Positions 5,656-64,000 of a DNA stretch of 64,000 nt are shown here, piece by piece. The position numbers were made by a program, and so were the translations under genes. This DNA is from Candidatus Aenigmatarchaeota archaeon (GTDB taxonomy: Archaea > Aenigmatarchaeota > Aenigmatarchaeia > GW2011-AR5), in assembly GCA_016180945.1 (NCBI GenBank), contig JACPAG010000001.1, positions 19,900-83,899 on the forward strand, written 5' to 3'. Every line of letters begins with the position of its first letter. The stretch's first letter is position 1. The notes under the pieces were generated by a model that saw only the letters and a program-made list of their open reading frames with translations, ran no database searches and had not been told where the DNA came from.

Positions 5656-6702
5656 ATGTTAGTTCTTGAGGACGGCACTGTTTTTTACGGAAAGCCTTTT
5701 GGCGCTTCAAAGGCGGTTTCTGGAGAGGTAGTTTTCAATACAGGCATGGTTGGCTATACGGAAGCCATAACAGACCCCTCTTATAAGGGCCAGATTTTAT
5801 GCCAGACATACCCGTTGATAGGCAATTACGGCGTTTCCGAAGACGATTTCGAGTCTGATTCTCCAAAAATAGAAGGGTATATAGTAAGCGAAATCTGCAA
5901 AAAACCGAACCACAGGACGGCGCAAAAATCTCTGGACAGTTTTCTGGCAGAGCACGGTGTTCCCGGCATAGCCGGCATAGACACGCGCGCGCTTACAAAA
6001 AAGCTGCGCATGAAAGGCGTTATGCTTGGCGTTCTTTCAACTGAAGACGGGACTGCGCCAGAAACAAAAATACCTGACCCGAACGAGACTGACCTTGTTG
6101 AAAAAGTCACTATAAGCAAACCTATATTCTATGAAAATGCAGGCAAAACCGTCGTCGTGATGGACTGCGGCGTTAAAATGAATATAATACGCTCTTTGCT
6201 GGAAAGAAAACTGAATGTGATAAGAGTCCCGGCGTCGTATGCAGCAGACAGGATAATGGAACTGAAGCCGGATGGCATACTGATTTCCAACGGTCCTGGC
6301 GACCCGAAAAAAGTGGATTACGTCATTGAAGCAACAAGGCAACTCATAGAATACAAGATGCCCGTCTTTGGAATATGCCTCGGCATCCAGATTCTTGCTC
6401 TAGCAATGGGCGGAAATACGTACAAGCTCAAGTTCGGTCATCGTGGACAAAACCATACGTGCATGGATTTGAAAACAAAGAGGTGCTACATAACATCGCA
6501 AAATCATGGGTATGCTGTTGATGCGGCTTCGCTCAACGACTGTGAAATCACTTTTCTCAACGTTAACGACAAGACAGTCGAAGGAATAGAACACAAATCA
6601 CTTCCTGTCTTCGGTGTTCAATTTCATCCAGAAGCCGCGCCAGGCCCTACGGACACGAAATTTCTTTTTGATAAATTTGTGAAGATGATGAACAATGAAT
6701 AA
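5656..6702 (+). CDS. carA: carbamoyl-phosphate synthase small (glutaminase) subunit
   Basis: MLVLEDGTVFYGKPFG N-terminus. Class I GATase triad context (PVFGICLGIQILA, FGVQFHPEA). ATG at 5656 preferred over the TTG at 5647. Confidence 0.93.
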   Translation: MLVLEDGTVFYGKPFGASKAVSGEVVFNTGMVGYTEAITDPSYKGQILCQTYPLIGNYGVSEDDFESDSPKIEGYIVSEICKKPNHRTAQKSLDSFLAEHGVPGIAGIDTRALTKKLRMKGVMLGVLSTEDGTAPETKIPDPNETDLVEKVTISKPIFYENAGKTVVVMDCGVKMNIIRSLLERKLNVIRVPASYAADRIMELKPDGILISNGPGDPKKVDYVIEATRQLIEYKMPVFGICLGIQILALAMGGNTYKLKFGHRGQNHTCMDLKTKRCYITSQNHGYAVDAASLNDCEITFLNVNDKTVEGIEHKSLPVFGVQFHPEAAPGPTDTKFLFDKFVKMMNNE

Positions 6703-6703
6703 T

Positions 6704-6736
6704 ATGGCGATCGACTTGCGAAGCAAGGGGATAATG
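6704..6736 (+). promoter_or_regulatory. leader module B (ATGGCGATCGAC + hairpin CTTGC-GAA-GCAAG + GGGATA + ATG) filling the carA-carB gap
   Basis: Starts 1 nt after the carA TAA and ends on the carB ATG (6734). Member of the recurrent family described in findings. Confidence 0.7.
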
Positions 6737-9700
6737 AATGAAATCAAGAAAGTCCTGATACTGGGCAGCGGTGCAATCACTATTGGCCAGGCGGGAGAAT
6801 TTGATTATAGTGGCGCTCAAGCCATAAAGGCGTTCAGGGAAGACGGGATAAAAACCGTTTTAGTCAACCCTAACATAGCTACTATACAGACAGACGAAAA
6901 ATTTGTAGACAAGGTTTATTTTCTGCCTGTCAAGGGCGAGTTTGTTGAGCAGATAATCGCCAAAGAAAGGCCGCAGGGAATCTTATTGGGATTCGGCGGC
7001 CAGACAGCGCTGAACTGCGGCCTGGAGTTGCACGAGAAGGGTGTGCTGGAAAAATATGATGTAAGGGTTCTGGGAACGAACATAGAAAGCATAATAAAAG
7101 CCGGCAACAGGCAGGAGTTCAAAAAACTCATGGAATCTAACGGCATCCAAATACCAAAGAGCGCTTCTGCTTTTTCCATAGACGAGGCGGCAGAAATAGC
7201 AAACACTATTGGTTATCCCGTCATGGTGAGGGTTGCTTACACCCTTGGCGGTCAGGGAACGGGCGTCGCGTACAACGATTCACAACTGAAAGAGATTGCG
7301 TCCCGTGGGTTGACGCACAGCAGGATTCATCAGATACTTGTGGAAGAGTACCTGCATAAGTGGAAGGAGGTCGAGTACGAGGTTATGCGGGACCGCGAGG
7401 ACAATTGCATAATTATTTGCAACATGGAGAACTTCGACCCCATGGGAATCCATACCGGTGAGAGCATCGTCGTTGCGCCGTCACAAACTCTGACGAACAA
7501 GGAATACCATAAGCTTCGGGAAATGTCTTTCAGGGTTATTCGCTCCTTAGGAATAGTAGGCGAATGCAATATCCAGTATGCGATCAACCCGAAAAACGGC
7601 GACATACGCGTCATCGAAGTCAACTCGCGTCTGTCAAGAAGCTCTGCGCTGGCCAGTAAAGCGACAGGTTATCCGATTGCGTACATAGCTGCAAAATTAT
7701 CTATGGGCTATGCGTTGCCGGAGCTGGCGAACAAAGTCACGAAAGTAACAACAGCCTGTTTCGAACCGGCGCTGGATTATGTTGTTGTGAAAATTCCAAG
7801 GTGGGATTTCCAGAAATTCCGCCGCGCTAACAGGAATCTCGGCACGCAGATGAAATCCATAGGAGAGGTCATGTCCATAGGCCGCAATTTCGAAGAGGCG
7901 CTGCAGAAAGCTGTCAGGATGCTGGACATAGGCCGTGAACTCACGGATGATATAGAAGGCGGCGTCCAAAGAACAAAGGACGAACTTGTGCATCCGACGG
8001 ACAAAAGAATATTTTATATTGCCGGGGCGCTGAAGAATTTTTCTGTCGCCGAGGTCGGCGAATTAACGGGCATAGACGAGTGGTTCATTCACAAGATAAA
8101 GAACATCGTGGATATAGAAGAGAAAATAAAATCGTCTTTTACAACTGATGTCCTTAAGGAAGCAAAAAAACACGGATTTTCTGACAGAAAGATAGGAGAA
8201 CTGGCAGGAAGGGGCGAAGAATCTATAAGGGCGCTCCGGAAAAAGCATGGCATAATTCCTGTTGCCAAACATATAGACACGATGGCCGCGGAATGGCCCG
8301 CAAAAACAAATTACTTGTATCTTACCTATGGAGACGAGGACGACATAGAGTTTGAAAAAAAGAAAAAAGTCATTGTCCTCGGCTCAGGATGCTATCGTAT
8401 CGGCTCCAGTGTCGAGTTTGACTGGTGCTGTGTAAACCTGGCTATGGCATTAAAGAAAGATGCTGATGAGGTGGTAATGATAAATTACAACCCGGAAACC
8501 GTATCAACGGACTACGATATCCTGGACAAGCTTTATTTCGAGGAACTTTCTCTTGAGCGCATAAGGGATATAATAGAAAAAGAGAACCCTCTGGGCGTCG
8601 TCGTTTCAGTGGGCGGCCAGATACCAAATAACCTTGCGCTAAAGCTTTCTGAATTCGCGCACATACTGGGGACGTCAGCAGAAACTATAGACGCCGCTGA
8701 AGACCGCTCTAAATTTTCTTCCCTGCTCGACAATCTGGGAATAAGCCAGCCGTGGTGGAACAAATTTACGGACTTTCAGGAGGCAAAAAAATTTGCAGGC
8801 AGAATAGGATATCCTGTGCTGATACGCCCTTCATACGTCTTGTCGGGGGCCGCCATGAAAGTCGTATTTAATGAAAACGACCTGGAACACTTTCTAAAGT
8901 CGGCGGCAGAAATTTCCAGCAGCGGCGTTGTTATATCAAAATTCTTTTCAGACTCGCGCGAGATAGAAGTAGACGCGGTCAGCGACGGAAAGAATGTTTT
9001 CATAGGCGCAATTATAGAGCATGTGGAGAATGCAGGCATCCATTCCGGCGATGCCACGCTGGTCATACCTGCTTTTAGCATAACAGAAGATGAGAAGAAA
9101 AAAATAATAGAAGCGACGAAAAAGCTTTCTCATAGCCTTCACATCATTGGACCTTTCAATGTCCAGTACCTGGTTAAGAACGGCGGGATTTTTGTGATAG
9201 AATGCAACATACGCGCGTCAAGAAGCATGCCGTTCGTTTCAAAGGCCATAGGAATAAATCTGATGGAACTGGCGGCCGCGGCTATTATGGGAAAACGCAT
9301 AGATAAAAAAGAGGTTTCCCCGGATATTTTTGCTGTGAAGGTCCCGCAGTTTTCTTTCATGCGCCTTGAGGGCGCGGACCCTGTGACAGGCGTTGAAATG
9401 GTTTCTACAGGCGAAGTCGCCTGCTTTGGCAAAACCCTTGAAGAGGCTTTCGTAAAAGCCCTTATATCGTCCGGCCTTGAAATACCGAAACCCGGTGATG
9501 ACATACTGATAACAGTAAGCAAAAAAGAAAAAATAATCGACAATGCAAAAATCCTTTCAAAAAGGTTCAAAATAAACGCGACAGAACATACGGCAGAGGA
9601 GCTTGTAAAAAACGGCGTCGACTGCAGGATGCTTTACAAGGTAACTGAAAACAGGCAGCCGAACATACTTGATTACCTGGTGGAAAAAAAACTGAAGCTG

Positions 9701-10292: not shown

Positions 10293-10293
10293 A

Positions 10294-10398
10294 TAGCCCC
10301 CACCGGATTCGAACCGATGTCTCGACCTCCAGAGGGTCGCATCCTTGACCAATGCCTAAGATTTTGATGCGTTCAAAATCTTGCTAGACGAGGGGGCT
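10294..10398 (-). tRNA. tRNA-Gln (anticodon CUG) with a ~31-nt intron in the D-loop
   Basis: Reverse complement reads AGCCCCC-TC-GTCT-AG[CAAGATTTTGAACGCATCAAAATCTTAGGCA]TTGGTCAA-GGAT-G-CGACC-CTCTGGA-GGTCG-AGAC-ATCGG-TTCGAAT-CCGGT-GGGGGCT-A. All four stems pair once the 31 nt are removed. The insert itself forms a 10-bp hairpin. No encoded CCA. Confidence 0.85.
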
Positions 10399-10452
10399 GT
10401 ATTCCTTCCTTATTTATGTTAAGTATTTAATTAAATTTTGCAAAGAAAAAGT

Positions 10453-11288: not shown

Positions 11289-11456
11289 AAATCTCCTTTT
11301 TAATAGTTTATGATTATAGAGTGTGATAAATATTTATGCTCAAACAACAAAAGAATACAGATAATTAATTTTGTCGTTTGGCATACTGTAAACCAAATTA
11401 TATCCTGTATCTCATTATTTATTTGGTTTACAATATTTCAATAAAATGGTGATTCC

Positions 11457-12399: not shown

Positions 12400-12755
12400 G
12401 CCAATAGATACGTGAAAAAAGCTTTAATCTGCAAGGCGTTTCAGAGCAGTATATAATATAGGCATCTGGTTAAACCCTCACAACGCCGGGTGACAGCTCT
12501 ATATTTTAGAAAATATACTTTTTAATTATTATTTATTATCATATATTTCTTAAAAGGGGCCAAGCTGCAATTTAACTTTCATGAAATATATTTCCTGATT
12601 ACATTAACACATCAGATATGATTTATCATAGATTTTCTATATGGTGTTACAATACATATAGTTCATACAATAGAGATTATGCCTGCGAAGCCGCTTCAAC
12701 CCTAACATAAAAAATACAGGAAGCGTAAGCTGATTTGACAGGGTATTCTTAACAA

Positions 12756-13298
12756 TCAGGCGTTTTCTTCTGTCTCGTCGCTTTCTTCTTCGGCTCCGCC
12801 GTTTTCATCGGCCGCTTCGCTGCTCTTTTCGTCTTTTGCGTCGCGCGCCATCCCTAACATAAGAAGGTCGTCAAAATCCTTGGCTATGCGCCTGGTTTTG
12901 CGCATGAAGCTTTTCATGGAGCTTTCGACCTTGTCCATCAGCCTGTTGACCGTATTAGACGTGAGCAGATAGCCTTTCACGTAGTCGTTTCCGGCAGGAA
13001 TTTTAACAAATTCAACAAGTCCCAATGACCTCCATTTTCTCAATTCCTCGTATGTCTGGCTCTGCGAAACCTCCAGAATCTGGGAAATTTTTTCGATGGA
13101 AACCGGTACGTTGTCTTTTTTGTACCGTAGCAGCTCTAAAAGCAGTTTTGAGTGCTTCGCCCGGCTTTCCTTTCGCCTCAGGCCGAGACGCCTTACAAGA
13201 ACAGCCGACAGATCATCCACTGTCAGGTTTATTTTTGTGTCAGGCGGCGAAATCCTCTGGAAAACCATGTCGCTGAGTTTTTTCTTCATTCTCCCCAC
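12756..13298 (-). CDS. winged-helix regulator with acidic C-terminal tail
   Basis: 180 aa. VSIEKISQILEVSQSQTYEELRKWRSLGLVEFV HTH-like core. The tail is DEKSSEAADENGGAEEESDETEENA. Confidence 0.6.
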   Translation of the reverse strand: MGRMKKKLSDMVFQRISPPDTKINLTVDDLSAVLVRRLGLRRKESRAKHSKLLLELLRYKKDNVPVSIEKISQILEVSQSQTYEELRKWRSLGLVEFVKIPAGNDYVKGYLLTSNTVNRLMDKVESSMKSFMRKTRRIAKDFDDLLMLGMARDAKDEKSSEAADENGGAEEESDETEENA

Positions 13299-13362
13299 CT
13301 TTGCTTCGCAAAGTTGTCGAGTGCCATATTATTCATATCCAATTTACTGGTTATCCCTAACA

Positions 13363-13452
13363 TCACATCTTCCTTATATACCACCGGTTAAAACCGGTGG
13401 TTTGCAAGAAGATGGGATCCAGAAGACATTGTATTTCAATGTCTTCTTAGAT
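13363..13452 (-). repeat. nested stem-loop element, family S, minimal copy (candidate structured RNA)
   Basis: On the minus strand: AAGACATTG-aaata-CAATGTCTT, GGATCCCAT, then CATCTTC ... [CCACCGGT-TTTA-ACCGGTGG] TATATAAG GAAGATG. Same architecture as 53871-53986 and 63839-64000. Lies directly 3' of the dCMP deaminase gene. Confidence 0.6.
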
Positions 13453-18031: not shown

Positions 18032-18048
18032 AAAATAAAATAAATAAT

Positions 18049-18130
18049 ATGGCACTCGACTACGACTGGAAGGAGCAAAAATTATAAAATGGCAATCGAC
18101 TTTTTGCATCAGCAAAAAGGGGATGATATG
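18049..18130 (+). promoter_or_regulatory. tandem leader modules A (18049-18088) and B (18089-18130) in front of radA
   Basis: A: ATGGCACTCGAC-TACGACTGGAAGGAGCAAAAATTATAAA. B: ATGGCAATCGAC + CTTTTTGC-ATCA-GCAAAAAG + GGGATGAT + ATG (radA start at 18128). Confidence 0.7.
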
Positions 18131-20230: not shown

Positions 20231-21355
20231 TTACGACTGGACAACTAAAGTTTTTATTCGTGGCGACAGCTGGTAAACATATGCCCTGTCCCTCTGGGCC
20301 CGTTCCAAAAGTCCTTCTTGCAGCAGTCTTTTCGTGATGTTGTTCACGCTTCTGACTGCATGCTGCCTGGACTTGTATTTCGAAAGGTCCAGCATATTTG
20401 CGACCTCGCCGGGAGAACAGGATTTTTTGGCCAGTATGTCTATAATCCCTTTCTGCATGGGCGTCAGTTTCTCCAGCATGTCCAAAGAAACCTCCTTTTT
20501 GGGCGCAGCCTCTTTCCATGTAAGGTCTTCCGTTATGGTGTCCCGTCCTTTTTCTATCGCGGCCTTTATCAGGTCGTTGCAGTATCTTATAACCTCACGT
20601 GGAAAGCCGCCTGTTGATTCGTATATTGTATCGATAGTTTTGTCATCAAACAGCCCGAGACCCGTGCCGCCGACAGCCGCTATGCGTTTCTCCATCATTT
20701 CCCGCATTTCTTCTTTTGTTAGGGATAAGACCTCTACTTTCGCGGCTATCCGCTTTCTTAATGTCTCCAATTTATCCCTTATTTGCACCTCAAAAACAGG
20801 CAGCCCTGAAAGAACCAGAATCATGTTATCCACCTGGTCGCTTATAACGCGCAGCCATTCTAAAACATTCAGGTCAGACTCGTGGCATTCGTCGAGCATC
20901 ACGACAAGCGTTTTGCCGGAAAGCCTGCCGTTAAGGAATTTCGGCAGCTGGTGCAGGTTTTTTATGTTTTGCCATGGTAGATACCAAGGCTTGGGGAATT
21001 TATCCCTGAAAATATCAACAAATTCCTCAGCCTTCGAAGGCGGTTTGCCAATAAAAATATAGTCGTGCCTGTCAGGCAGATTGTCAGCTATCCATTTTAG
21101 CATGCTTGTTTTTCCCGATCCAGTAGGCCCTACAAGAAGCACGATTTTCTGCCTTTCTTCAATGGCGCTGATAAGAGAATTTACCTGGGTTTTATAACCC
21201 ACAAAAAGCGCCGGCGAAATATGAAAGGTAAAGGGATTGTTTTTCCATCCTCTTTTAGAAAACCATGCAAAATGGTCGTTTGTTTCGAGCATTTCCGGAC
21301 TGTTTTTTATGTTAGCGTCATTACCAGTCCCGCTATCGGGTTTTCCAGCTCCCAT
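20231..21355 (-). CDS. Orc1/Cdc6-related AAA+ ATPase with C-terminal winged helix
   Basis: Walker A LLVGPTGSGKTS, Walker B LVVMLDECH, GGFPREVIRYCN (compare Cdc6 GDARRALDLLR). C-terminal wHTH (GEVANMLDLSKYKSRQHAVRSVNNITKRLLQEGLLER). Adjacent to the TTCAC array. Confidence 0.75.
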   Translation of the reverse strand: MGAGKPDSGTGNDANIKNSPEMLETNDHFAWFSKRGWKNNPFTFHISPALFVGYKTQVNSLISAIEERQKIVLLVGPTGSGKTSMLKWIADNLPDRHDYIFIGKPPSKAEEFVDIFRDKFPKPWYLPWQNIKNLHQLPKFLNGRLSGKTLVVMLDECHESDLNVLEWLRVISDQVDNMILVLSGLPVFEVQIRDKLETLRKRIAAKVEVLSLTKEEMREMMEKRIAAVGGTGLGLFDDKTIDTIYESTGGFPREVIRYCNDLIKAAIEKGRDTITEDLTWKEAAPKKEVSLDMLEKLTPMQKGIIDILAKKSCSPGEVANMLDLSKYKSRQHAVRSVNNITKRLLQEGLLERAQRDRAYVYQLSPRIKTLVVQS

Positions 21356-21398
21356 ATAGACCTATTAGTAGCTGGCTTTAAATGTTTATATATACATA

Positions 21399-21862
21399 AG
21401 TTCACAGGATATTCACAGATTTTCGTGAACATAATACTCATATTCACAGCTCTTCACGAAGATAAAACCTACCTTCACAGCTTCACAACATAAATTCACA
21501 TGAATATTCACAACATTCACGTGAATACTTCACCAGTATAAATGAAGGCTATGAAGTCTTAGTGAAGGTTTTATGAAGTGTTAATGAAGAGCAAAATGAA
21601 GATAGTGAGAGATTTTTCCATATAAAACCTGTAGTAATCAACAAGAATGTGAGTTTCGACAAAATCCAAACGAGTTTTTGTGAGGGTCTTCACGAATGTC
21701 ACAGAACTCTTCACTTTATCTTCACTGATGTTCACAGAAGTTTATTAATCTTCATATGAAGTTCACGTTGTTCACGTGATATTCACGTTAACTTCACGTA
21801 ATCTTCACAAACTCACCGTGAAGAGCACTCATATTTGTGAGTAAAAATAACAATTTTGTGAG
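21399..21862. repeat. dense phased array of TTCAC / (A/G)TGAAG pentamer iterons
   Basis: About 19 TTCAC on the top strand, in two blocks (21401-21533 and 21688-21808). A block of at least 7 inverted (A/G)TGAAG (21543-21610) lies between them. Typical spacing is 9-12 bp. The region is non-coding. Confidence 0.85.
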
Positions 21863-21971
21863 CTATTGAAAGACTATACAAAAGAAAAATCTAGGTAAAA
21901 TTTAAGACTTAAAGGAATTTTCGGCATTAATTAGCCTAATTAGGCGTATAAAAGGTATATTTAAGGAGAAA

Positions 21972-24092: not shown

Positions 24093-24169
24093 ATGGCATG
24101 CGACTAACGATAAACTGACGCACAGCGGTGCGTCTGGTTGTTTCGTAGCGTTGCGGAGGGGCATGTATG
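24093..24169 (+). promoter_or_regulatory. variant leader module in front of ligT with GACGCAC hairpin
   Basis: ATAAT-ATGGCATGCGAC ... GACGCAC-AGCG-GTGCGTC ... GCGGAGGGGCATGT-ATG (ligT start at 24167). A 34-nt core (24112-24145) recurs inverted at 39651-39684. Confidence 0.55.
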
Positions 24170-27731: not shown

Positions 27732-27834
27732 GAAAAACCTCTTATTTGTTTGGATTTTCCGGCATACCCCTCAATTTCGCTATGTTTAAAAGTGTTCAAA
27801 ACCAATTAATCTGAGTGATGACAATGTTTATAAA

Positions 27835-27921
27835 ATGGCACTCAACTTGCGTAGTAAGTAGAGGAGCGGAGCGACCAAACATTATAGTATGGCAATCGAC
27901 TTGCGGAGCAAGGGGATTATG
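27835..27921 (+). promoter_or_regulatory. degenerate + intact leader modules B in tandem in front of pepA
   Basis: 27835: ATGGCACTCAAC + CTTGC-GTA-GTAAG (decayed). 27889: ATGGCAATCGAC + CTTGC-GGA-GCAAG + GGGATT + ATG (27919). Confidence 0.7.
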
Positions 27922-29409
27922 AAGATAGACGTGGCTGTTAGTTCTTTGAAGCTGTTTAAAACCGACCTCCTTGCTGTCGGCGTTTTTGAGGATGAGCGCC
28001 TGAATGCAGACGCAAAAGCCGTTGATGCCATGCTGGCTGGCGAGTTATCAACAGTCCTCCGAAAGGAAGAGTTCAAAGCAGAATTCAAGCAGACGCGGCT
28101 TCTGTCAACTGGCAAAAACATCAGGAACGTTCTTCTCGTCGGCCTGGGAAAGAAAGACGAATATGATTTGGAAAGGCTGCGAAAAGTCTCGGCAACGGCA
28201 GCCAAAGCCGCCAGGAATAACCGGATAAAATCATTTTCGACCATTCTCCATAGAATTGAAATTAAAAATCGTTCTGTTGCGGAGAGAGCGCAGGCCATAG
28301 CTGAAGCAACCGTTCTCGGCCTGTACAAATTCAACAAATACAAGACAGAGAAAACAGATTTCGTGGTCGAGTCGCTGGCTGTCCTGGAAGAAGACAGGCG
28401 TAACGTAAAAGCCATAGAAGGCGCTGTTAGGTCAGGCCACGTGATAGCGGATGCAACAAACTATGCCCGCGATCTTGTCAACAGCCCTGCGTGTTTTGTA
28501 ACGCCGTCAGCCTTGGCGGAAGAAGCCAGACGCATAGCGCGGGAAAACAATCTTAAAGCCCAAGTCTTCGGCCGCGAGGAAATCAAAAGCATGGGCATGA
28601 ACGCGTTGTTGGGCGTCAGCAAGGGCAGCGAGCAGGAACCGAAATTTATAATTTTAGAGTATAATCCAACAGCAAAAGAAAAAATCGCCGTCGTCGGAAA
28701 GGGCATTACGTTCGATTCAGGCGGGATGGACCTGAAGCCTCCGGCATACATGGAGGACATGAAATTGGACAAGGCAGGCGCGGCAGCCGTGCTCGGCATA
28801 ATGCAACTTGCAGCAAAATTAAGGCTTCCGTTGCACGTCATCGGTGCTATGCCGGCAACAGAGAACATGCCAGGCGGCGCGGCCCAGAAGCCTGGCGATG
28901 TCGTAACTGCTTATAACAAAAAAACCATAGAAATCATCAACACAGACGCGGAAGGTAGACTAGTTCTGGCCGACGCGATAAGTTATGTTGAAAAAAACTA
29001 CAAGCCGTCTGCAATAATTGATTTGGCAACGTTGACAGGCGCATGCATCATCGCCTTGGGTTATCATGCAGCCGGCATATTCGGCAGCGAAAATCTGCTG
29101 GAAAAATTAAAAGCCGCCGGCAACGAATCTTTTGAGCGCGTCTGGCCGCTGCCCCTGTGGCAGGAGCACAAAGAAACAGTCAAAGGCGAGCTTGCAGACG
29201 TGAAAAACGCCACTAAAGCCGGCGTGGCAGACGCAGGCGCAATCAACGGCGCGGCATTTTTGTCCAACTTCGTCGAGAAAACGCCTTGGGCCCACATCGA
29301 CATAGCAGGCACTGCGTGGAGCCCGGAAGAGCGCGAATACGTTCCAAAGGCGGCAACTGGTTACGGAGTCCGCCTCATAACGCAGCTTCTGATGGACTGG
29401 AAGAAATAG
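27919..29409 (+). CDS. pepA: leucyl aminopeptidase (M17)
   Basis: VGKGITFDSGG and NTDAEGRLVLAD signatures. The first 10 ORF-track residues belong to the leader module. Confidence 0.92.
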   Translation: MKIDVAVSSLKLFKTDLLAVGVFEDERLNADAKAVDAMLAGELSTVLRKEEFKAEFKQTRLLSTGKNIRNVLLVGLGKKDEYDLERLRKVSATAAKAARNNRIKSFSTILHRIEIKNRSVAERAQAIAEATVLGLYKFNKYKTEKTDFVVESLAVLEEDRRNVKAIEGAVRSGHVIADATNYARDLVNSPACFVTPSALAEEARRIARENNLKAQVFGREEIKSMGMNALLGVSKGSEQEPKFIILEYNPTAKEKIAVVGKGITFDSGGMDLKPPAYMEDMKLDKAGAAAVLGIMQLAAKLRLPLHVIGAMPATENMPGGAAQKPGDVVTAYNKKTIEIINTDAEGRLVLADAISYVEKNYKPSAIIDLATLTGACIIALGYHAAGIFGSENLLEKLKAAGNESFERVWPLPLWQEHKETVKGELADVKNATKAGVADAGAINGAAFLSNFVEKTPWAHIDIAGTAWSPEEREYVPKAATGYGVRLITQLLMDWKK

Positions 29410-39650: not shown

Positions 39651-39684
39651 CGAAACAACTAGACGCACAGTAGTGCGTCAGTTT
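39651..39684 (-). repeat. inverted copy of the GACGCAC-hairpin block seen at 24112-24145
   Basis: Minus strand: AAACTGACGCAC-TACT-GTGCGTCTAGTTGTTTCG versus AAACTGACGCAC-AGCG-GTGCGTCTGGTTGTTTCG at 24112. 29 of 34 identical, and four of the five differences are in the loop. Confidence 0.7.
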
Positions 39685-48956: not shown

Positions 48957-48970
48957 AAATGAAAAATAAG

Positions 48971-49008
48971 ATGGCAATCGACTTTTGCCGGAGCAAAAGG
49001 GGATAATG
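48971..49008 (+). promoter_or_regulatory. leader module B between HMG-CoA synthase and the 99-aa ORF
   Basis: ATAAG-ATGGCAATCGAC + CTTTTGC-CGGA-GCAAAAG + GGGATA + ATG (49006). Here the upstream ATG is out of frame and its reading frame stops at TAA. Confidence 0.7.
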
Positions 49009-49327: not shown

Positions 49328-49404
49328 ATGGCAACAGTCTTGCGACTGGAAGGAGCTAAAATTATAAAATGGCGCTCGACTTTGCCGGAGCAAAGGGGAG
49401 TATG
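49328..49404 (+). promoter_or_regulatory. tandem leader modules A (49328-49368) and B (49369-49404) in front of the thiolase gene
   Basis: A: ATGGCAACAGTCTTGCGACTGGAAGGAGCTAAAATTATAAA. B: ATGGCGCTCGAC + CTTTGC-CGGA-GCAAAG + GGGAGT + ATG (49402). Confidence 0.7.
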
Positions 49405-50565
49405 AGGAACGTTTGTGTTGTTGGCGCAGCCCAGACAAAATTCGGCGAGCTCTGGGACAGGTCGCTACGCGACTTGATAGTGGAAGCCGGCATTGGCGCC
49501 GTAAAAGACGCCGGAATTGAAAAGAGCGCCATCCAGAGCTTGTACGTAGGCAATATGTCTGCCGGCCGTTTTGCCGGCCAGGAGCATCTGGGCGCACTGG
49601 CTGCGGATTTTCTCAGCCTTAGAGTACCTGCCACGAGATGCGAAGCCGCCTGCGCATCCGGCAGCGTTGCTTTCCGCGACGCGTATTATGCCGTTGCCTC
49701 CGGCGACATAGACGCCGCCCTTGTTATAGGCGCAGAAAAAATGACTGATGTTCACGGCTCTGGTGCGCTGACAACGCTTGCCGCTGCCGGCGACCAGGAG
49801 TGGGAAGCGTCTATCGGGTTGACGTTCGCCGGTCTGTACGCGCTGATTGCAAGAAAGCATATGGTCGATTTCGGCACCACAAGAGAACAGATGGCGGCCG
49901 TTTCCGTAACAAACCACAAGAACGGGTTGAAAAACAAACTCGCCCAGTTCCAGATGAAAATAACCATAGAAGACGTGCTGAACTCTGCTATGATAGCCGA
50001 TCCCTTGAGGCTTTTTGATTGTTCTCCGATAACAGACGGCGCGGCCGCTGTTGTAGTAGCCAGCGAGTCCGCCGCCAAAAAACTCTCTACCCAGCCCATT
50101 TATGTCCTTGGTACGGGCCAGGGATCCGATTCGATAGCTCTGCACGACCGTGCGTCGTTTACAGAGCTTCTGGCTACCAAGGCCGCCGCCAAAAAGGCAT
50201 TCGAGCAGGCAGGCATCGGCAGAAACAAGATCGATACCACAGAAGTACATGATTGCTTTACAATAAATGAGATTATTTCCCTGGAAGATCTGGGTTTCGT
50301 TGAGAAGGGTAAAGGCGGCAAGTTCGCCGAAGAAGGAAAAATAGATTTGAATGGAGAACTGCCAACCAATACGTGCGGCGGCCTTAAGGTATGCGGCCAT
50401 CCAGTAGGCGCTACGGGTGTCCGCCAAATAGTCGAGTTGGCCCGCCAGCTGCGCGGCCAATGTTTCAACCCAATCAACGGCGCAGAAATAGGGTTGAACT
50501 TGAACATAGGCGGCTCTGGCGCAACTGCCGTGGTAAATATATTCGGCAAAGAGCCGAGGTATTGA
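49402..50565 (+). CDS. acetyl-CoA acetyltransferase (archaeal thiolase)
   Basis: Catalytic Cys CEAACASGS. C-terminal GGLKVCGHPVGATG. Confidence 0.9.
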   Translation: MRNVCVVGAAQTKFGELWDRSLRDLIVEAGIGAVKDAGIEKSAIQSLYVGNMSAGRFAGQEHLGALAADFLSLRVPATRCEAACASGSVAFRDAYYAVASGDIDAALVIGAEKMTDVHGSGALTTLAAAGDQEWEASIGLTFAGLYALIARKHMVDFGTTREQMAAVSVTNHKNGLKNKLAQFQMKITIEDVLNSAMIADPLRLFDCSPITDGAAAVVVASESAAKKLSTQPIYVLGTGQGSDSIALHDRASFTELLATKAAAKKAFEQAGIGRNKIDTTEVHDCFTINEIISLEDLGFVEKGKGGKFAEEGKIDLNGELPTNTCGGLKVCGHPVGATGVRQIVELARQLRGQCFNPINGAEIGLNLNIGGSGATAVVNIFGKEPRY

Positions 50566-51234: not shown

Positions 51235-51552
51235 TCATCCCCACACAAACCTTAAATCCCTTCCTACCACACCCCCCTGTTTCCTATACCCCCCACATTT
51301 TCTCAAAATAACCCCCTTTCTTTTAAAACATACCTTCGTTTCCGTTGGAGGTAACACCACACCACCATTTCATATAACACAATTATACATATAACAAGGG
51401 AAAATCTCCACAGGAAATGTTGGGGTGTTGCCTCCACAAAACTATATTTCAACAACCCCACTTTCCACTAGAGATATATTTATATATTCTCCAAAAGAAG
51501 TAATGGTAGATTTTTGTTTTTCTTGGTTGGTGTGGGGTGTGGAAAGTGGAAG
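51235..51552. other. candidate chromosomal replication origin (ORB-type boxes + AT-rich unwinding element)
   Basis: ORB-like TCCACAGGAAATGTTGGGGTG (51407-51427). Inverted pair CCCCACTTTCCACTAG (51457-51472, = CTAGTGGAAAGTGGGG on the minus strand) and GTGTGGAAAGTGGAA (51537-51551), flanking the AT-rich GAGATATATTTATATATTCTCC. C-runs (G-strings on the other strand) at 51268-51320. Directly upstream of cdc6. Confidence 0.7.
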
Positions 51553-52769
51553 CAGTTTCTAAAGTAGACAATATCTTCTCCCAGTACGTCCAAAAACAGT
51601 CCGTCTTTAAAGACAAAACAGTCCTGACATCGAATTTTATACCGGAAAAAATCCCGCACAGGAGCGAGGAAATAACGCAGCTCAGCTTGGCGTTGGCTCC
51701 GATGCTCAAGGGATTTCATGCCAGCAACGTCTTCGTTTACGGCACCTGCGGCACCGGGAAAACCATATGTAGCCGTTTCGTTGTCAACCAGTTGGAAGAA
51801 GCCGCCAAAGACGGCCAAATAAAAACAATCTACATCAACTGCAAGATGAAAAAGGTGGCCGATACTGAATACCGGCTGCTGGCCCAGCTGCTGAAAGAAC
51901 TTGGTGAGTGCGTCCCGGATACGGGCCTGCCGACTGATGTCCTTTACAGGAGATTTTTTGAAAACGCCGACTCAAAAAGGCAGACGCTGGTTTTGGTGCT
52001 GGACGAAATAGACGCCCTCTTCAAAAAAATAGGGGACGAGTTCCTTTACAACCTGACAAGAATAAATCAGGAACTAAAACAGGCAAAATTGAACATCGTC
52101 GGTATAACGAACGACCTCTCTTTCCGGGACGGGCTGGATATGCGCGTCCGCTCGTCATTAGGCGAAGAAGAGATTTTATTCCGGCCATATAACGCGCTCC
52201 AGCTGAAACACATACTGGAAGAGCGCGCCAAAACCGGATTTGAAACGGGGTTAGACGAGGCCATCTTAAACAAATGCGCAGCCATAGCCGCGCAGGAACA
52301 CGGCGACGCCCGCCGCGCGTTAGACCTGCTGCGGGTTGCCGGCGAACTGGCCGAAAGGCAGGGCGACGCGAAAATAACAGAGGCGCATATCGATATGGCC
52401 GAGCAGAAAATAGACCTGGATAGGGTGATAGAGACAATAAAATCCCAGCCCAGCCAGTCGCAAATCGTTCTGCACGCCATCATAAAATTGGCAGAAAGCA
52501 GGAAAAAAACGACAAAATGGGCTGATGCGCGGCTTCTTACCGGCGACGTTTTCGCCACCTATGAGAGCGTGTGCAAAGAGAACGGCATCAAATCACTCAC
52601 CCAGCGGAGGGTCAGCGACCTGATAGCCGAGCTGGACATGCTGGGCATTATAACAGCCAAAGTGATATCCAAGGGCCGGTACGGCAGAACAAAAGAAATA
52701 TCAATGGCAATCAGCAACAGCCACCTGGACCGCGTCAAGGCGTTTCTAGCAGGCAGGTTCAGCCCATGA
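51537..52769 (+). CDS. cdc6: Orc1/Cdc6 replication initiator
   Basis: Walker A YGTCGTGKT, Walker B LVLVLDEID, GDARRALDLLR, C-terminal wHTH. No early ATG, so a GTG start is assumed. Confidence 0.92.
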   Translation: MWKVEAVSKVDNIFSQYVQKQSVFKDKTVLTSNFIPEKIPHRSEEITQLSLALAPMLKGFHASNVFVYGTCGTGKTICSRFVVNQLEEAAKDGQIKTIYINCKMKKVADTEYRLLAQLLKELGECVPDTGLPTDVLYRRFFENADSKRQTLVLVLDEIDALFKKIGDEFLYNLTRINQELKQAKLNIVGITNDLSFRDGLDMRVRSSLGEEEILFRPYNALQLKHILEERAKTGFETGLDEAILNKCAAIAAQEHGDARRALDLLRVAGELAERQGDAKITEAHIDMAEQKIDLDRVIETIKSQPSQSQIVLHAIIKLAESRKKTTKWADARLLTGDVFATYESVCKENGIKSLTQRRVSDLIAELDMLGIITAKVISKGRYGRTKEISMAISNSHLDRVKAFLAGRFSP

Positions 52770-53870: not shown

Positions 53871-53986
53871 TATCCTCAAAGACATTGAAAACTGCCGTCT
53901 TTAGACAGCAGATGAAATACAATGTCTTTGGGATGCCATGCTCAAAGAAACCCCTGACTAAAGTCAGGGGTTATATCAGAGCATAT
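53871..53986 (+). repeat. nested stem-loop element, family S, one internal hairpin (candidate structured RNA)
   Basis: TATCCTCAAAGACATTGAAAAC [CTGCCGTC-TTTA-GACAGCAG] ATGAAATA CAATGTCTTTG GGATGCCATGCTC AAAGAAA [CCCCTGAC-TAAA-GTCAGGGG] TTATATCA GAGCAT. Directly 3' of the polD small-subunit gene. Confidence 0.65.
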
Positions 53987-54048
53987 CATACCCGTTTATA
54001 ATTACACGGTCACCGGGTGCTAGGAATTACAGCAAAAACCTATCGTGT

Positions 54049-54642
54049 TTATACATGTACTGGTTGTCTTTCAAGCTGAGCAAAAGCTGAACGTAACTCT
54101 TCTTCTGGAATATCTTCCCGAAATCTGTGCACAATATCAACTAAATGTGGCGGTAATGTCTTTCTCCAAGAAGAATGAATAATACGTAATAATGGTGGAC
54201 GAGGAGTATAAACAAAACTCGATTGTGGTTTAGTATGATCTAGACCAGAGAATAAATACAATTTTTCAAGACCTGCTCCAAATTCTTCTCCTGCTCCCCA
54301 AATCCTTCCAAAATCTCTTTTTATGTCAGGAGTAGGATCGCTATCTAATGGGTATGTTTTCCATGGTCCGGAACCATGTGCTCTCAGTACAGGATTATTT
54401 CCACGTCGTCTTTCTATTTCAGCTATATATCTAAGATTCTCTAACGCATCTGGAACTCTATTTCTTAAGCTAGTAAAAACCTCTATCACAACACAAGGTG
54501 GGTAGTTTTCTGCAAAAGGATTCATGGGATAGATATGAAATTGAATACCTCTACCTCGAATTTCAAACGATTCATCAGGACGCCGATATGGTTTAGGTCT
54601 TTCCAATGTTCTTACTAAATAACCCTGTTCAGTCATATACAA
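54049..54642 (-). CDS. 197-aa orphan protein between polD-small and polB
   Basis: Uninterrupted ORF, more AT-rich than its flanks. No family recognised. Confidence 0.55.
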   Translation of the reverse strand: MYMTEQGYLVRTLERPKPYRRPDESFEIRGRGIQFHIYPMNPFAENYPPCVVIEVFTSLRNRVPDALENLRYIAEIERRRGNNPVLRAHGSGPWKTYPLDSDPTPDIKRDFGRIWGAGEEFGAGLEKLYLFSGLDHTKPQSSFVYTPRPPLLRIIHSSWRKTLPPHLVDIVHRFREDIPEEELRSAFAQLERQPVHV

Positions 54643-54767
54643 ACTATTTATATAGCAAACTATTTATCGCTTAATCGCTGCCCACCTCCCTATATTTTCA
54701 TATCGACTCGTTAAAAATACTCTGACTTTGTCAGCACTTCGTGCATCTAACAGAAATTATAAATTAT

Positions 54768-54799
54768 ATGGCGCTCGACTCTGCGAAAGCAGAGGGGAG
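54768..54799 (+). promoter_or_regulatory. leader module B upstream of polB
   Basis: ATAAATTAT-ATGGCGCTCGAC + CTCTGC-GAAA-GCAGAG + GGGAG. The polB ATG follows 36 nt later (54835). Confidence 0.65.
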
Positions 54800-54834
54800 A
54801 AAGCATAAAAGCATTTTTTGTCATAGAAAGTCGT

Positions 54835-61006: not shown

Positions 61007-61132
61007 CGACTGGAAGGAGTAAAAATTACATTCGAAGGACTAAAAGTCCTTCGATGCATCGAAGAACGTTCACAGTTCTTCGAGTGTAAGTGTAATATGG
61101 CACTCGACTTTGCCGGAGCAAAGGGGAGTATG
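61007..61132 (+). promoter_or_regulatory. leader: module A fragment, two inserted hairpins, module B in front of the radical SAM gene
   Basis: CGACTGGAAGGAGTAAAAATTA (61007-61028). TCGAAGGAC-TAAAA-GTCCTTCGA (61032-61054). TCGAAGAAC-GTTCACA-GTTCTTCGA (61059-61083). ATGGCACTCGAC + CTTTGC-CGGA-GCAAAG + GGGAGT + ATG (61130). Confidence 0.7.
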
Positions 61133-62614
61133 AAAGTAATGCTAATAAGGCCGCCGCATACGGATTTTGAGGGCACCGAACCGCCGCGTATAGGCATCCC
61201 TTTAGGCGCGCTCAGTATAGCCGCGGCAATGGAACAGCGCGGGCACGAAGTAAAAGTTTTCGATGCATTGACATACATGGACAAGACCGGCGACAAAAAC
61301 CATTTCGGCGCCTCGTGGGAAAGAATCCTGGGAGAAATAAAGAAATTCAATCCCGGCGTCATCGGCATAGCAAATCTTTTTTCTACGCAGATAGGCAAAG
61401 CCCTCATTCTGCCAAAACTGATCAGGGGGGCGAATCCAGAAATAAAACTGATAGTCGGCGGTCCTCATGCAACCGTTCGCCCCCAGGATTTCCTCAATGG
61501 AGAATTTGATTTTGTCATCCTGGCCGAAGGCGAAGAAACAGGCCCCGATATAGTTGATTATTACGCAGGGCGGAAAAAACTAGAAGAAATAAAAGGAATA
61601 GCGTATATGGATAACGGGCTGAAAATCCACCCGCCGGAATACATAAAGGATTTGGACAAGCTGCCGTTCCCGGCGTATCATCTCGTAGACATGGAAATGT
61701 ATTTCACGCTCGTCTTCAACGGTTTTTCGTCCAGACCGCAAGATCCGTTCTACAGGCCGCGCAGGGAAATGACAATGATAACAAGCCGCGGCTGCCCTTA
61801 TATCTGCACCTTCTGCTCTATACATCCGACAATGGGCTACAAGTTCCGGATGCAATCAGCAGAGTATGTTTTGAATCATATCGAGCACGTCGCCAGGACA
61901 TACAACGTCGAGCTGATACATTTCGAGGATGACAATCTCACGCTGAACCCGAAGAGGTTCGAGGAGATATTGGACGGTCTCGAAGCAAGAAACATTCATG
62001 TGGAGTGGGATACGCCCAACGGCGTCCGCGCCGACACGCTAACCCGCCCGCTGCTCGAAAAGATGAAAAAAGCGCATGTCAGCGAACTCCGCATCGCTAT
62101 CGAGTCCGGCGTCCAGGAAGTCCTGGACAAGGTTGTGAAAAAAAGTCTCGATATAAATAAAGCCATACAGGCGGCAAAAGATTGCTGCGAGCTCGGCATC
62201 AAGCTTAGCGCCTTTTACGTCATTGGCATGCCGGGCGAAACGAAAAAAGACATAGAAACCACTCTGGAACTGGCTTATACGCTGATGCACGGGTACAATG
62301 TCACGCCGCACGTCAACATAGCGCATCCCCTCGTCGGAACAGAGCTTTACGAAACAGCCAAGGAAAAAGGCTATTTAATCGATGAAGATTATACAAAGGG
62401 TTTCATCTTCGGGACGGGGCGCATCAAAACAGAAGAGTTCTCCCCCGAAGATCTCAGGCGGATGTCGACAGACTTTTATAAAAAAGTCAGAAAGCTCTAC
62501 CTTATGAAAATGATAAGAAGCCCGAGGATAATTGCGAACAACGTCAAAACATTTATCCGCTATCCAAAAAGCACGCTGCGCCTGATAAAGATTGCAGGCA
62601 GGTACACGTCATGA
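61130..62614 (+). CDS. B12-binding-domain radical SAM protein
   Basis: N-terminal cobalamin-binding-like domain. CxxxCxxC cluster motif RGCPYICTFCS. Confidence 0.85.
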   Translation: MKVMLIRPPHTDFEGTEPPRIGIPLGALSIAAAMEQRGHEVKVFDALTYMDKTGDKNHFGASWERILGEIKKFNPGVIGIANLFSTQIGKALILPKLIRGANPEIKLIVGGPHATVRPQDFLNGEFDFVILAEGEETGPDIVDYYAGRKKLEEIKGIAYMDNGLKIHPPEYIKDLDKLPFPAYHLVDMEMYFTLVFNGFSSRPQDPFYRPRREMTMITSRGCPYICTFCSIHPTMGYKFRMQSAEYVLNHIEHVARTYNVELIHFEDDNLTLNPKRFEEILDGLEARNIHVEWDTPNGVRADTLTRPLLEKMKKAHVSELRIAIESGVQEVLDKVVKKSLDINKAIQAAKDCCELGIKLSAFYVIGMPGETKKDIETTLELAYTLMHGYNVTPHVNIAHPLVGTELYETAKEKGYLIDEDYTKGFIFGTGRIKTEEFSPEDLRRMSTDFYKKVRKLYLMKMIRSPRIIANNVKTFIRYPKSTLRLIKIAGRYTS

Positions 62615-63320: not shown

Positions 63321-63812
63321 TCAGCCGAATAGCGTTTCTACAGACCCTGTGACGAATCTGGCCGTTAAAACGATTAGCAGAAAAGCAGAAACCACGAGCA
63401 CCGTATAAAAATGGGATTTTTCTTTCAGAACTTTGGCGGCTATCATGAACGAGGGGAAGCAGATAAGAATAAAGCGGGAAAATCCCTCCAGTGTAGACGA
63501 CAGCAACGGGAGAATCATCATCAGGAACATGTAAACGCCGTAGCTCTTACGCATGTGCACGAATGCGTAGTACAGCGTTGATATGAAAAACGCCAATACG
63601 GACAAGTTCCAAAGGCTGTATGCAGCCAGCACAGGGCCCCGGAACAAAATCAATTCCATTGCGTTCATCAGAGCCACATGCGGCGAGCTCACCGTTCTCG
63701 ACCACAGGTTCTGCTGGTTGGCATAGCCGAACAGCGTTCCCGTAGTGAAGTAGGAGTATACGAAGAACAGCACAACACCTATTATTGTTGAAGATAAAGC
63801 TAATTCCCTCAT
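63321..63812 (-). CDS. integral membrane protein (glycosylation cluster)
   Basis: Start at MRELALSS chosen; the ORF-track extension runs into the stem-loop element. About 5 TM. Confidence 0.55.
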   Translation of the reverse strand: MRELALSSTIIGVVLFFVYSYFTTGTLFGYANQQNLWSRTVSSPHVALMNAMELILFRGPVLAAYSLWNLSVLAFFISTLYYAFVHMRKSYGVYMFLMMILPLLSSTLEGFSRFILICFPSFMIAAKVLKEKSHFYTVLVVSAFLLIVLTARFVTGSVETLFG

Positions 63813-63838: not shown

Positions 63839-64000
63839 TATCCTCAAAGACATTGAAAACACACGACTTCAGTCGTGTGATGCAAGCAGAAGCTTCGCTT
63901 CTGCTGCACAGAAAGACTCCTAGAGTCTTTCTTGTGAAATACCAATGTCTTTTGGATCCTATCGTTGACAAACTCACAGCTTTAGCTGTGGGTTTATTAC
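63839..64000 (+). repeat. nested stem-loop element, family S, three internal hairpins (runs to window edge)
   Basis: Same 22-mer TATCCTCAAAGACATTGAAAAC. Then ACACACGAC-TTCA-GTCGTGTG, GCAGAAGC-TTC-GCTTCTGC and AGAAAGACTC-CTA-GAGTCTTTCT. Closing CAATGTCTTTTG, GGATCCTATCG, and CTCACAGC-TTTA-GCTGTGGG. Confidence 0.65.

Follow-up and report, generated by a model that had tools for sequence, protein, structure and literature searches.

Family S, Hairpin-Built Intergenic Repeats of Groundwater Aenigmarchaeota That Are Probably a Miniature Mobile Element

The Locus and Its Three Copies

The DNA analyzed here, a stretch of 64,000 nt (hereafter the window), belongs to the MAG of a groundwater Candidatus Aenigmarchaeota (DPANN) and carries genes for Orc1/Cdc6, the PolD small subunit, PolB, RadA, RPA, and mevalonate-pathway enzymes, together with restriction-modification/defense genes. 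Homologs of the PolD small subunit and of the product of gene 12756-13289 come almost all from Candidatus Aenigmarchaeota MAGs, and two window proteins are 100% identical to the NCBI entries HYT72_00180 and HYT72_00435 of a 216,689-nt contig. The latter is a 195-aa ORFan (54049-54636, minus strand) with a TATA box ~20 nt before its ATG, and it separates PolD-small from PolB, genes that are adjacent in two to three relatives. This ORF was considered as a transposase and rejected, as it has no family match and no homolog except its own entry; more generally, searches of the window against Pfam, NCBIfam, and PHROGs revealed no transposase, integrase, or other partner gene.

Intergenic regions of this window harbor three copies of a hairpin-rich element, family S, whose parts are as follows:

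53872-53989, plus strand: complete copy c1, 118 nt (75.4 bits, E 2e-15); stem 1 with one inner hairpin, then stem 2 and hairpin B
53872-53887, plus strand: c1, 5' arm of stem 1; outer ATCC at 53872-53875, bulged T at 53876, inner CAAAGACATTG at 53877-53887
53892-53911, plus strand: c1, inner hairpin 1; CTGCCGTC-TTTA-GACAGCAG, with one C.A mismatch
53920-53934, plus strand: c1, 3' arm of stem 1; CAATGTCTTTG followed by GGAT
53938-53984, plus strand: c1, domain B; ATGCTC (53938-53943) pairs with GAGCAT (53979-53984)
53949-53972, plus strand: c1, hairpin B inside stem 2; AACCCCTGAC-TAAA-GTCAGGGGTT
13362-13452, minus strand: complete copy c13, 91 nt, without inner hairpin (109.6 bits)
63840-64000, plus strand: copy c3, cut by the window end (true end beyond 64000); stem 1 with three hairpins
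63860-63879, 63886-63904, and 63910-63932, plus strand: c3, the hairpins within stem 1
63972-63993, plus strand: c3, hairpin B, preceded by the 5' arm of stem 2

The first of these copies starts 17 nt past the PolD-small stop codon; the genes on its two sides converge, and the 3' end of ORF 54049-54636 is 59 nt away. The 13.4-kb copy is bordered by the dCMP deaminase stop codon and a T5 run on one side and by GTTAGGGATAA on the other, and c3 lies upstream of gene 63321-63812 (minus strand), at a distance of 27 nt from its ATG. The limits of the elements (53872-53989, 13452-13362, and 63840 to beyond 64000) were set by comparison with relatives and with a copy in another assembly, L131. The flanks of c13 and of the L131 copy part exactly outside AT...AT, which fixes the ends of the element; their domain-A arms, stem 2, and 3' tail are near-identical, and they are set apart by hairpin B and by whether they have inner hairpin 1. 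The 3' limit of c1 was set by analogy, from the tail GA(A/G)(G/C)AT(G/A)T(G/C)AT common to c13 and the L131 copy. Overall, the elements measure from ~90 to >160 bp, and the complete copies (91-118 nt) contain no ORF and are too short for a transposase.

Further Members of the Family

A covariance model was built on the three window copies with their inner hairpins removed, and it recovered all three. Run on the window and on fetched Aenigmarchaeota loci, a kind of search that a first-pass annotation of this DNA had proposed for the genome, it found further members, and it gave zero matches in ~170 kb of unrelated loci. Of 13 matches in a scan of GTDB genomes, one (L131) is a true family member; the ten matches from a public metagenome scan were all chance matches. 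A viral or plasmid origin was discarded, the IMG/VR scans having given chance matches or none. Family S is put at eight members in four assemblies (the window MAG, with three, L131, L158, and L161). The copies in the three other Aenigmarchaeota assemblies, and a divergent candidate within the window, are these:

L158 444-560, plus strand: copy La; ACTCAGAGACATTAAT...ATTAATGTCTCTGG, then a 10-bp stem 2
L158 10662-10562, minus strand: copy Lb, cut by the contig end; stem 2 ATGCTC/GAGCAT enclosing two hairpins
L161 (GCA_016193585.1) 12412-12315, minus strand: copy Lc, beside tRNA-Pro
JACQIE010000002.1 2261-2139, minus strand: L131 copy (85 bits, E 3e-17), the match from the GTDB-genome scan
Window, about 27620/27622-27723, plus strand: divergent candidate (26 bits, E about 9e-4 by a rough calibration; fold z-score -10.9)

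Among members, the second helix of domain B encloses one or two hairpins, or merely an AT-rich loop. The 27.6-kb candidate has a different stem 1, CGGATAGAACG/CGTTCTATCCG, around one hairpin and ATGATATAG, followed by a 12-bp hairpin with a TAAA loop; its layout is that of family S, of which it is a possible relative of insecure homology. A weaker match to the model (11331-11436, 18.9 bits, E about 0.04) lies in a divergent spacer of the window. It starts with ATGCTCAAAC, like the stem 2 arm of c1, contains two long AT-rich hairpins, and may be a decayed domain B.

The tRNA-Pro gene next to Lc also occurs in the window, where a probable tRNA-Pro (anticodon UGG; 10293-10400, minus strand) is interrupted in its D-arm region by a hairpin-forming insert. 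ARAGORN missed it, and the Rfam tRNA model scores it at 21.9 bits, below the gathering score of 29. The same gene lies at ~12440-12535 (plus strand) in L161, 27 nt away from the family S copy.

Conservation of Structure and Sequence

Two hairpin domains stand side by side in each copy. Domain A is stem 1, made of 15 pairs and one bulged base: the 5' ATCC (ATCT in c13) pairs with GGAT, the bulge follows, and 11 further pairs complete the helix. The loop of stem 1, with 0 to 3 extra hairpins across copies, is 5 nt long in c13, whereas c1 has one hairpin there and c3 has three. Domain B, which is unrelated to domain A in sequence, consists of a 6-9 bp stem 2 that encloses a conserved AAAC, a perfect 9-10 bp hairpin with a TAAA/TTTA loop, and a TATA-like run (TTATATCA in c1). 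Across the family, the number of peripheral hairpins varies inside both stem 1 and stem 2. The three window copies fold with z-scores of -7.7, -8.0, and -9.3, a stability that 0 of 200 shuffles attain. Folding is just as good on the opposite strand, neither strand is consistently preferred in fold energy, and domain B scores 32-36 bits in reverse under the covariance model, almost as good as forward, which indicates that it is close to a DNA palindrome. The T.G wobbles read from the fold and pair-count outputs are four on the written strand and one on the other.

This picture refines that of the first-pass annotation, whose three copies with one architecture, three different hairpins inside the second stem, and series of zero, one, and three hairpins inside the first (borne out by the folds) are all present. 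The 22-mer that it had found repeated in c1 and c3 (TATCCTCAAAGACATTGAAAAC) is indeed identical in both, although it is really a 23-mer, TTATCCTCAAAGACATTGAAAAC, starting one T earlier. The arms AAGACATTG/CAATGTCTT exist as described, except that the base before them is A in c1 and c3 (CAAAGACATTG) rather than C or G. Similarly, the GGAT(G/C)C box is present but is not a separate module, its GGAT being the 3' partner of the 5' ATCC/ATCT in stem 1, and the second stem (ATGCTC/GAGCAT versus CATCTTC/GAAGATG) covaries as claimed, at 2 of 6 pairs, while being partly conserved (AT-SY-TC/GA-RS-AT). The 5' motif AAGACATTGAAA has exactly three occurrences and no other convincing near-match, and the 3' motif ACAATGTCTTYKGGATSC has three at ≤1 mismatch, against 0.33 expected at up to 3 mismatches.

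The covariation noted in the first pass is real and extends to every helix. Pairs were counted on alignments with the inner hairpins removed, MAFFT on unedited copies having misplaced the 5' arm of c13. In stem 1 (six members, three genomes), 97.6% of cells are paired and 5 of 15 pairs have changed on both sides; in the whole core (four full copies), these figures are 98.2% and 10 of 30, versus 32-43% paired and zero double changes in slid controls. Inner hairpin 1, which is homologous between c1, c3, and L131, has 95.8% of cells paired and compensatory changes at four of its eight pairs, and its flanks are identical among copies. Within stem 1, seven consecutive pairs of the core, AGACATT/AATGTCT, are invariant, and so are two A-T pairs in the outer helix. 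Sequence conservation is confined to AGACATT/AATGTCT and the junction boxes; elsewhere, helices have altered in sequence yet remain paired. Judged from these alignments, the core helix and junction boxes are under sequence constraint, and the peripheral helices retain pairing alone. A copying of the variable arms from nearby sequence was rejected, since a search of the window with the 8-12 nt hairpin arms gave no informative match elsewhere.

Insertion Sites and Presence/Absence Patterns

Copies of family S occupy T-rich intergenic sites, and the 5' flank ends in T right before the AT of the element in all six visible flanks (TT in five of them, AT in La). Four of seven copies start 0-17 nt past a co-oriented stop codon and two lie between convergent genes; c3 and the 27.6-kb copy adjoin gene 5' ends, and Lc adjoins a tRNA. 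The possibility raised in the first pass that copies mark gene 3' ends is thus borne out in part, for those four of seven, within 17 nt of the stop; a preference for T-rich targets behind stop codons fits this placement as well as a 3'-UTR function does. The termini share no clear inverted repeat across copies, and any target duplication amounts at most to the 2-bp AT. Terminal similarity is limited to ATCT/AGAT in c13 and L131 and to 6-8 imperfect nucleotides in c1, La, and Lc, yielding weak terminal inverted repeats such as ATCCTC/GAGCAT in c1 and ATACTC/CAGTAT in La. Palindromes, for their part, lie near both termini: stem 1 begins at the first base, and stem 2 ends 5 nt before the last.

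Every member sits at a different locus, those outside the window never at a site occupied in it, and the L131 locus has nothing but the element in common with the window. Presence or absence of the element differs at all six comparable loci of seven (c1, c13, La, Lb, Lc, and L131), the sites of La, Lb, and Lc being empty in the window. Of only eight known members, a single one, c13, has a clean empty site, found in two relatives whose neighboring gene is 90% and 92% identical at the amino-acid level:

Window, filled site: TAATTTTT-AT-C...GTG-AT-GTTAGGGATAA
L158 (GCA_053537215.1), empty site: TGATTTAT joined to GTTAGGGATAA (GTTAGGG start)
L160 (Hainich groundwater), empty site: TAATTTTTAT joined to GTTAGATATAAG (GTTAGA start)

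The comparison reveals a precise presence/absence of ~89-91 nt. Because AT stands on both sides of c13, the junction is ambiguous by two bases, and the AT at both filled junctions, with one AT in the empty sites of L158 and L160, fits a 2-bp duplication, no duplication, or microhomology. L160 has no element here but does have the T5 run behind the dCMP deaminase stop, so the run was not supplied by the element. At the c1 site, two relatives (PolD-small 84% and 74% identical) join PolD-small directly to PolB, with neither the element nor ORF 54049-54636, and in a third (95% identical) the element is absent from the 36 nt available past the stop, where the window copy begins after 17 nt. As a side observation on the c13 region, L158, the 90%-identity relative, has a block corresponding to window 12.1-15.2 kb, with the dCMP deaminase and TrmB/Lrs14-like genes, in inverted orientation.

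Every Logan contig that carries a flanking gene ends inside the element, in three and four independent samples and at the same base within each group, and the NCBI contig of L158 also ends inside Lb. Since independent contigs break inside it, this pattern suggests that family S is a multi-copy repeat in the genome.

Other Features of the Window

A second repeat family was observed just upstream of many start codons, with the form AATAATATGGC(A/G)NTCGAC, short hairpin, GGGGA(G/T), 1-3 nt, ATG:

6694-6738, 18039-18127, 27830-27923, 48961-49005, 49359-49405, 54758-54804, and 61088-61133, plus strand: start-codon repeat
13338-13290, minus strand; L158 9960-10003; L160 895-997: further copies of the start-codon repeat

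Sometimes doubled and often preceded by ACGACTGGAAGGAG(C/T)AAAAATTA, this repeat looks like a shared promoter-proximal or 5'-leader module. Its hairpin covaries between orthologs (CTTTGC-GAAG-GCAAAG in the window versus CTCGCC-GGAG-GCGAG in L158), and a Logan contig breaks inside it. At 61030-61085, the leader module between AAAAATTA and TAATATGGC contains two perfect hairpins joined by TGCA, TCGAAGGAC...GTCCTTCGA and TCGAAGAAC...GTTCTTCGA; the modules at 18 kb and 49 kb have nothing in their place, so hairpin gain is not confined to family S. Another recurring hairpin, GACGCACAG(C/T)(G/A)GTGCGTC, occurs in a 5' leader (24117-24135) and in a spacer between tandem genes (39662-39680); it is nested in a longer leader stem at ~948-966 of L160, and the motif GACGCACAG also occurs at window position 7312.

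Directly upstream of orc1/cdc6, inverted ORB-like boxes (CTCCAACGGAAAC on the minus strand, CTCCACAGGAAATGTTGGGGTG on the plus strand, TAGTGGAAAGTGGGG, and GTGTGGAAAGTGGAAG) surround an AT-rich stretch at 51349-51560, a likely replication origin as judged from these boxes. One more ORB-like box, solitary and of very good quality, is found on the minus strand at ~5597 (CTTCCATTGGAAAC...GGGGGGG). The 616-nt spacer (21356-21971) upstream of gene 20231-21355, which encodes an AAA ATPase (minus strand; AAA_22/ATPase_2), contains TTCAC 19 times, against ~0.6 expected, an iteron-like array. Finally, low-GC islands at ~30-36 kb and 44-48 kb (32-38% vs about 45%) carry two DNA methyltransferases (N6_N4_Mtase and D12 class), a DruA (Druantia) homolog, and a HerA-like ATPase, and look like acquired defense islands.

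Competing Explanations and a Possible Mechanism

The presence or absence of family S insertions differs between related groundwater Aenigmarchaeota genomes, which makes a mobile element the most likely reading. The MITE-like reading of the first pass is supported to this extent, by non-orthologous sites in four related genomes, by a precise empty site in two relatives, and by assemblies that break inside the copies. We consider it probable that family S is a miniature, gene-less family of mobile DNA elements of a groundwater Aenigmarchaeota clade. A new miniature transposable element family is what the sequences most likely represent, its mobilization as a single strand being inferred.

Strongly conserved structure and a place behind stop codons are likewise what a functional RNA or a terminator cassette might show. 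In one such reading, the copies would be a paralogous family of structured small non-coding RNA genes, with core and variable peripheral helices both needed and the scatter of copies produced by gene duplication and loss. In its favor, all helices have compensatory changes next to a core and junctions that are strictly conserved, a pattern seen in many functional RNAs; the very stable folds, the wobble pairs lying mostly on the written strand, and the TATA-like box within domain B speak for it too. However, Rfam offers no match above or near threshold and no family consistent across copies, and there is no conserved upstream promoter: what adjoins the 5' edge is a stop codon with a T-run in the case of four copies, and the start of a divergent gene in the case of one more. 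Moreover, domain B is nearly a DNA palindrome that scores almost as well reversed, its loop orientation is mixed (TAAA in some copies, TTTA in others), and the 13.4-kb copy is precisely absent from two relatives with otherwise collinear flanks; we regard such a gene family as very unlikely. Quite unlikely, too, is that the copies act in cis as 3'-end or insulator cassettes (terminators or RNA-stabilizing hairpins) that separate transcription units, with mobility incidental or absent. Here the four of seven starts within 0-17 nt of a co-oriented stop and the two convergent placements are joined by the folding of the S-bearing spacers, which at -0.31 and -0.34 kcal/mol per nt rank with the window's most structured intergenic regions. 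Yet the T5 run after the dCMP deaminase stop exists in a relative devoid of the element, which implies that the element adds nothing to the oligo-T signal used in archaeal termination; c3 and the 27.6-kb copy stand beside gene 5' ends and Lc beside a tRNA, most gene 3' ends in the window lack such a structure, and the orthologous genes of relatives manage without it.

A third reading accepts mobility and alters the mechanism: family S would be a classical MITE whose short imperfect terminal inverted repeats are read by a DDE transposase encoded elsewhere, with duplication of a 2-bp AT target. AT is found at both ends of c13, c1, La, Lc, and L131, the empty sites have a single AT, and the weak terminal similarity (ATCCTC/GAGCAT in c1, ATACTCAG/CTGAATAT-like in La, and TATACTCAAAG/CTTCGGTATA in Lc) would be compatible with a DDE-type mechanism. 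Nevertheless, these inverted repeats are imperfect and 4-7 nt long, c13 and L131 have none beyond ATCT/AGAT, and 2-3 extra bases intervene between the repeats and the flanking AT. Furthermore, the 5' AT pairs inside stem 1 in all copies (pairs 7-51 and 8-50 are invariant), so that it looks like part of the element and not like a duplicated target. IS630/Tc1 elements duplicate TA, and no common prokaryotic family is known to yield an AT duplication. With terminal similarity weak and inconsistent, at most 2 bp of AT, and no related transposon in the window or fetched loci, a classical MITE appears unlikely.

Returning to an element moved as a folded strand, an enzyme acting in trans would recognize the folded single strand, the best candidate being an HUH/Y1-type "peel-and-paste" transposase as in IS200/IS605. 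The recognition site would be the conserved domain-A helix with the junction boxes, and the wholesale turnover of helices beside identical flanks would suit an element whose core plays this role. The peripheral hairpins would then need folding alone and could drift freely while complementarity stays. Either of two processes might keep this complementarity: selection acting while the element is single-stranded, or the correction of quasi-palindromes by template switching, an established mechanism known as Ripley's model. Copies in a 3' UTR may, by their very stable hairpins, incidentally influence where RNAs end. In IS200/IS605-derived elements, the active strand is expected on the lagging-strand template. 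With an origin at the ORB-like boxes of 51.35-51.55 kb, if that is what they mark, this template corresponds to the written strand in c13, c1, and c3, three cases of three in a very small sample, and the divergent 27.6-kb copy does not fit this bias. The terminal palindromes, fixed 5' flank, strand placement, and wobble skew are weakly consistent with a single-strand mechanism. Against an IS200/IS605-type origin specifically, the hairpin domains at the two ends do not resemble one another, and with a 5' helix that starts right at the boundary, the customary spacer and guide have no place.

A bolder proposition, to which we give little credence, is that family S is the first described structure-defined, hairpin-accreting mobile element of DPANN archaea. 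It would have neither terminal repeats nor a protein of its own, its folded strand (DNA or RNA) would be read by an enzyme, and its peripheral helices would be replaceable and multipliable; alternatively, it would be an RNA module (terminator, insulator, or small RNA) that is mobile, spreading in the form of DNA while being kept for its transcript.

The genomes of DPANN archaea are tiny and streamlined, and what mobile DNA they carry is poorly described. Our full-text literature searches returned no such element described in Aenigmarchaeota or other DPANN archaea; a census based on terminal inverted repeats reports MITEs in some DPANN genomes (PMC11602168). As published MITE censuses depend on such repeats (PMC11602168), an element like family S could be missed. 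A structure-defined family would explain why assemblies break at particular intergenic sites, its copies could serve as markers of strain-level variation in groundwater populations, and it would point to a hairpin-recognizing enzyme in this lineage. A conserved helix accompanied by freely replaceable and multipliable hairpins also makes an unusually clean natural case of structure maintained without sequence.

Comparison with Known Systems

The first-pass annotation could assign the element to no known class, and at the family level this holds. The Rfam search that it had suggested returned no family match for the copies: at the gathering threshold there were 0 matches over the whole window, and the matches in E-value mode were generic hairpin ones that fell far short of threshold, the three copies having no family in common. 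Several known features were considered and rejected. ARAGORN found no tRNA or tmRNA, and hammerhead cores, C/D or H/ACA boxes, K-turns, and bulge-helix-bulge motifs, sought by eye, gave partial matches (CAGAUGA, UUGA) that are not conserved across copies; in c13, moreover, the loop is merely 5 nt. Resemblance to the archaeal ORB (TCCAnnGGAAA core and G-string) is loose (ACATTGAAAAC), proper ORB-like boxes being found at 51349-51539.

Integron attC sites, which have been reported in archaeal MAGs, are defined by structure, with conserved outer boxes, a variable branching center, and a location at the gene 3' end, and in these respects family S is alike. We nonetheless rejected this identity: the ends of family S have no R''/R' core sites (RYYYAAC/GTTRRRY), its insertion point is not at G|TT, and there is no cassette array and no tyrosine recombinase in the window, where the copies lie 10-40 kb apart, in both orientations, among housekeeping genes.

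Among bacterial modular hairpin repeats, REP/BIME/REPIN sequences (with their RAYT transposases) and the pneumococcal BOX element (boxA, variable boxB, boxC) are intergenic, often at gene 3' ends, and combine conserved pairing ends with internal modules that vary in number; REPINs are believed to move single-stranded through an HUH enzyme. Family S shares the intergenic hairpin build, the conserved pairing ends, and the variable internal modules. However, the internal modules of REP/BOX-type repeats are copies of one sequence, whereas the hairpins of family S are unrelated in sequence, and family S has no GTAG-type signature and no RAYT known here.

IS608 and ISDra2 move single-stranded via an HUH/Y1 transposase that recognizes subterminal hairpins, and insert on the 3' side of a short target of fixed sequence. 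The window and the fetched loci contain no IS605-type element with matching ends. IS200/IS605 is the most widespread IS family in archaea (PMC13343696), and its gene-less derivatives in Haloquadratum walsbyi, the PATEs (palindrome-associated transposable elements), were delineated by palindromes near the termini and a fixed 5' flank (PMC3119063). Like family S, PATEs are archaeal, too short for a protein, and endowed with palindromes close to both termini; they lack terminal inverted repeats, where family S lacks clear ones, and show no target duplication (at most 2 bp of AT in family S) and a short fixed 5'-flank sequence of 4-6 nt (T, mostly TT, before the AT in family S) (PMC3119063). In both, copies are heterogeneous in sequence, insertions are strain-specific, and palindromes can receive small insertions (PMC3119063). 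Family S departs from PATEs in that its terminal hairpin domains differ from each other, its 5' helix stands at the boundary instead of after a spacer, its hairpin number varies, and its helices undergo wholesale compensatory turnover.

The SMR-A repeats of Haloquadratum (~110 bp), whose mobilizing enzyme is not known, resemble family S in size, in the absence of coding capacity, and, a possible 2-bp AT in family S aside, in inserting without target duplication (PMC3119063). By contrast, they possess prominent terminal inverted repeats, their copies are >95% identical, and they target other mobile elements (PMC3119063), whereas in family S terminal repeats are weak at best and the targets are T-rich intergenic DNA. 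Although not a demonstrated member of either group, family S, as a miniature non-autonomous mobile element, comes closest to these PATE/SMR-type repeats.
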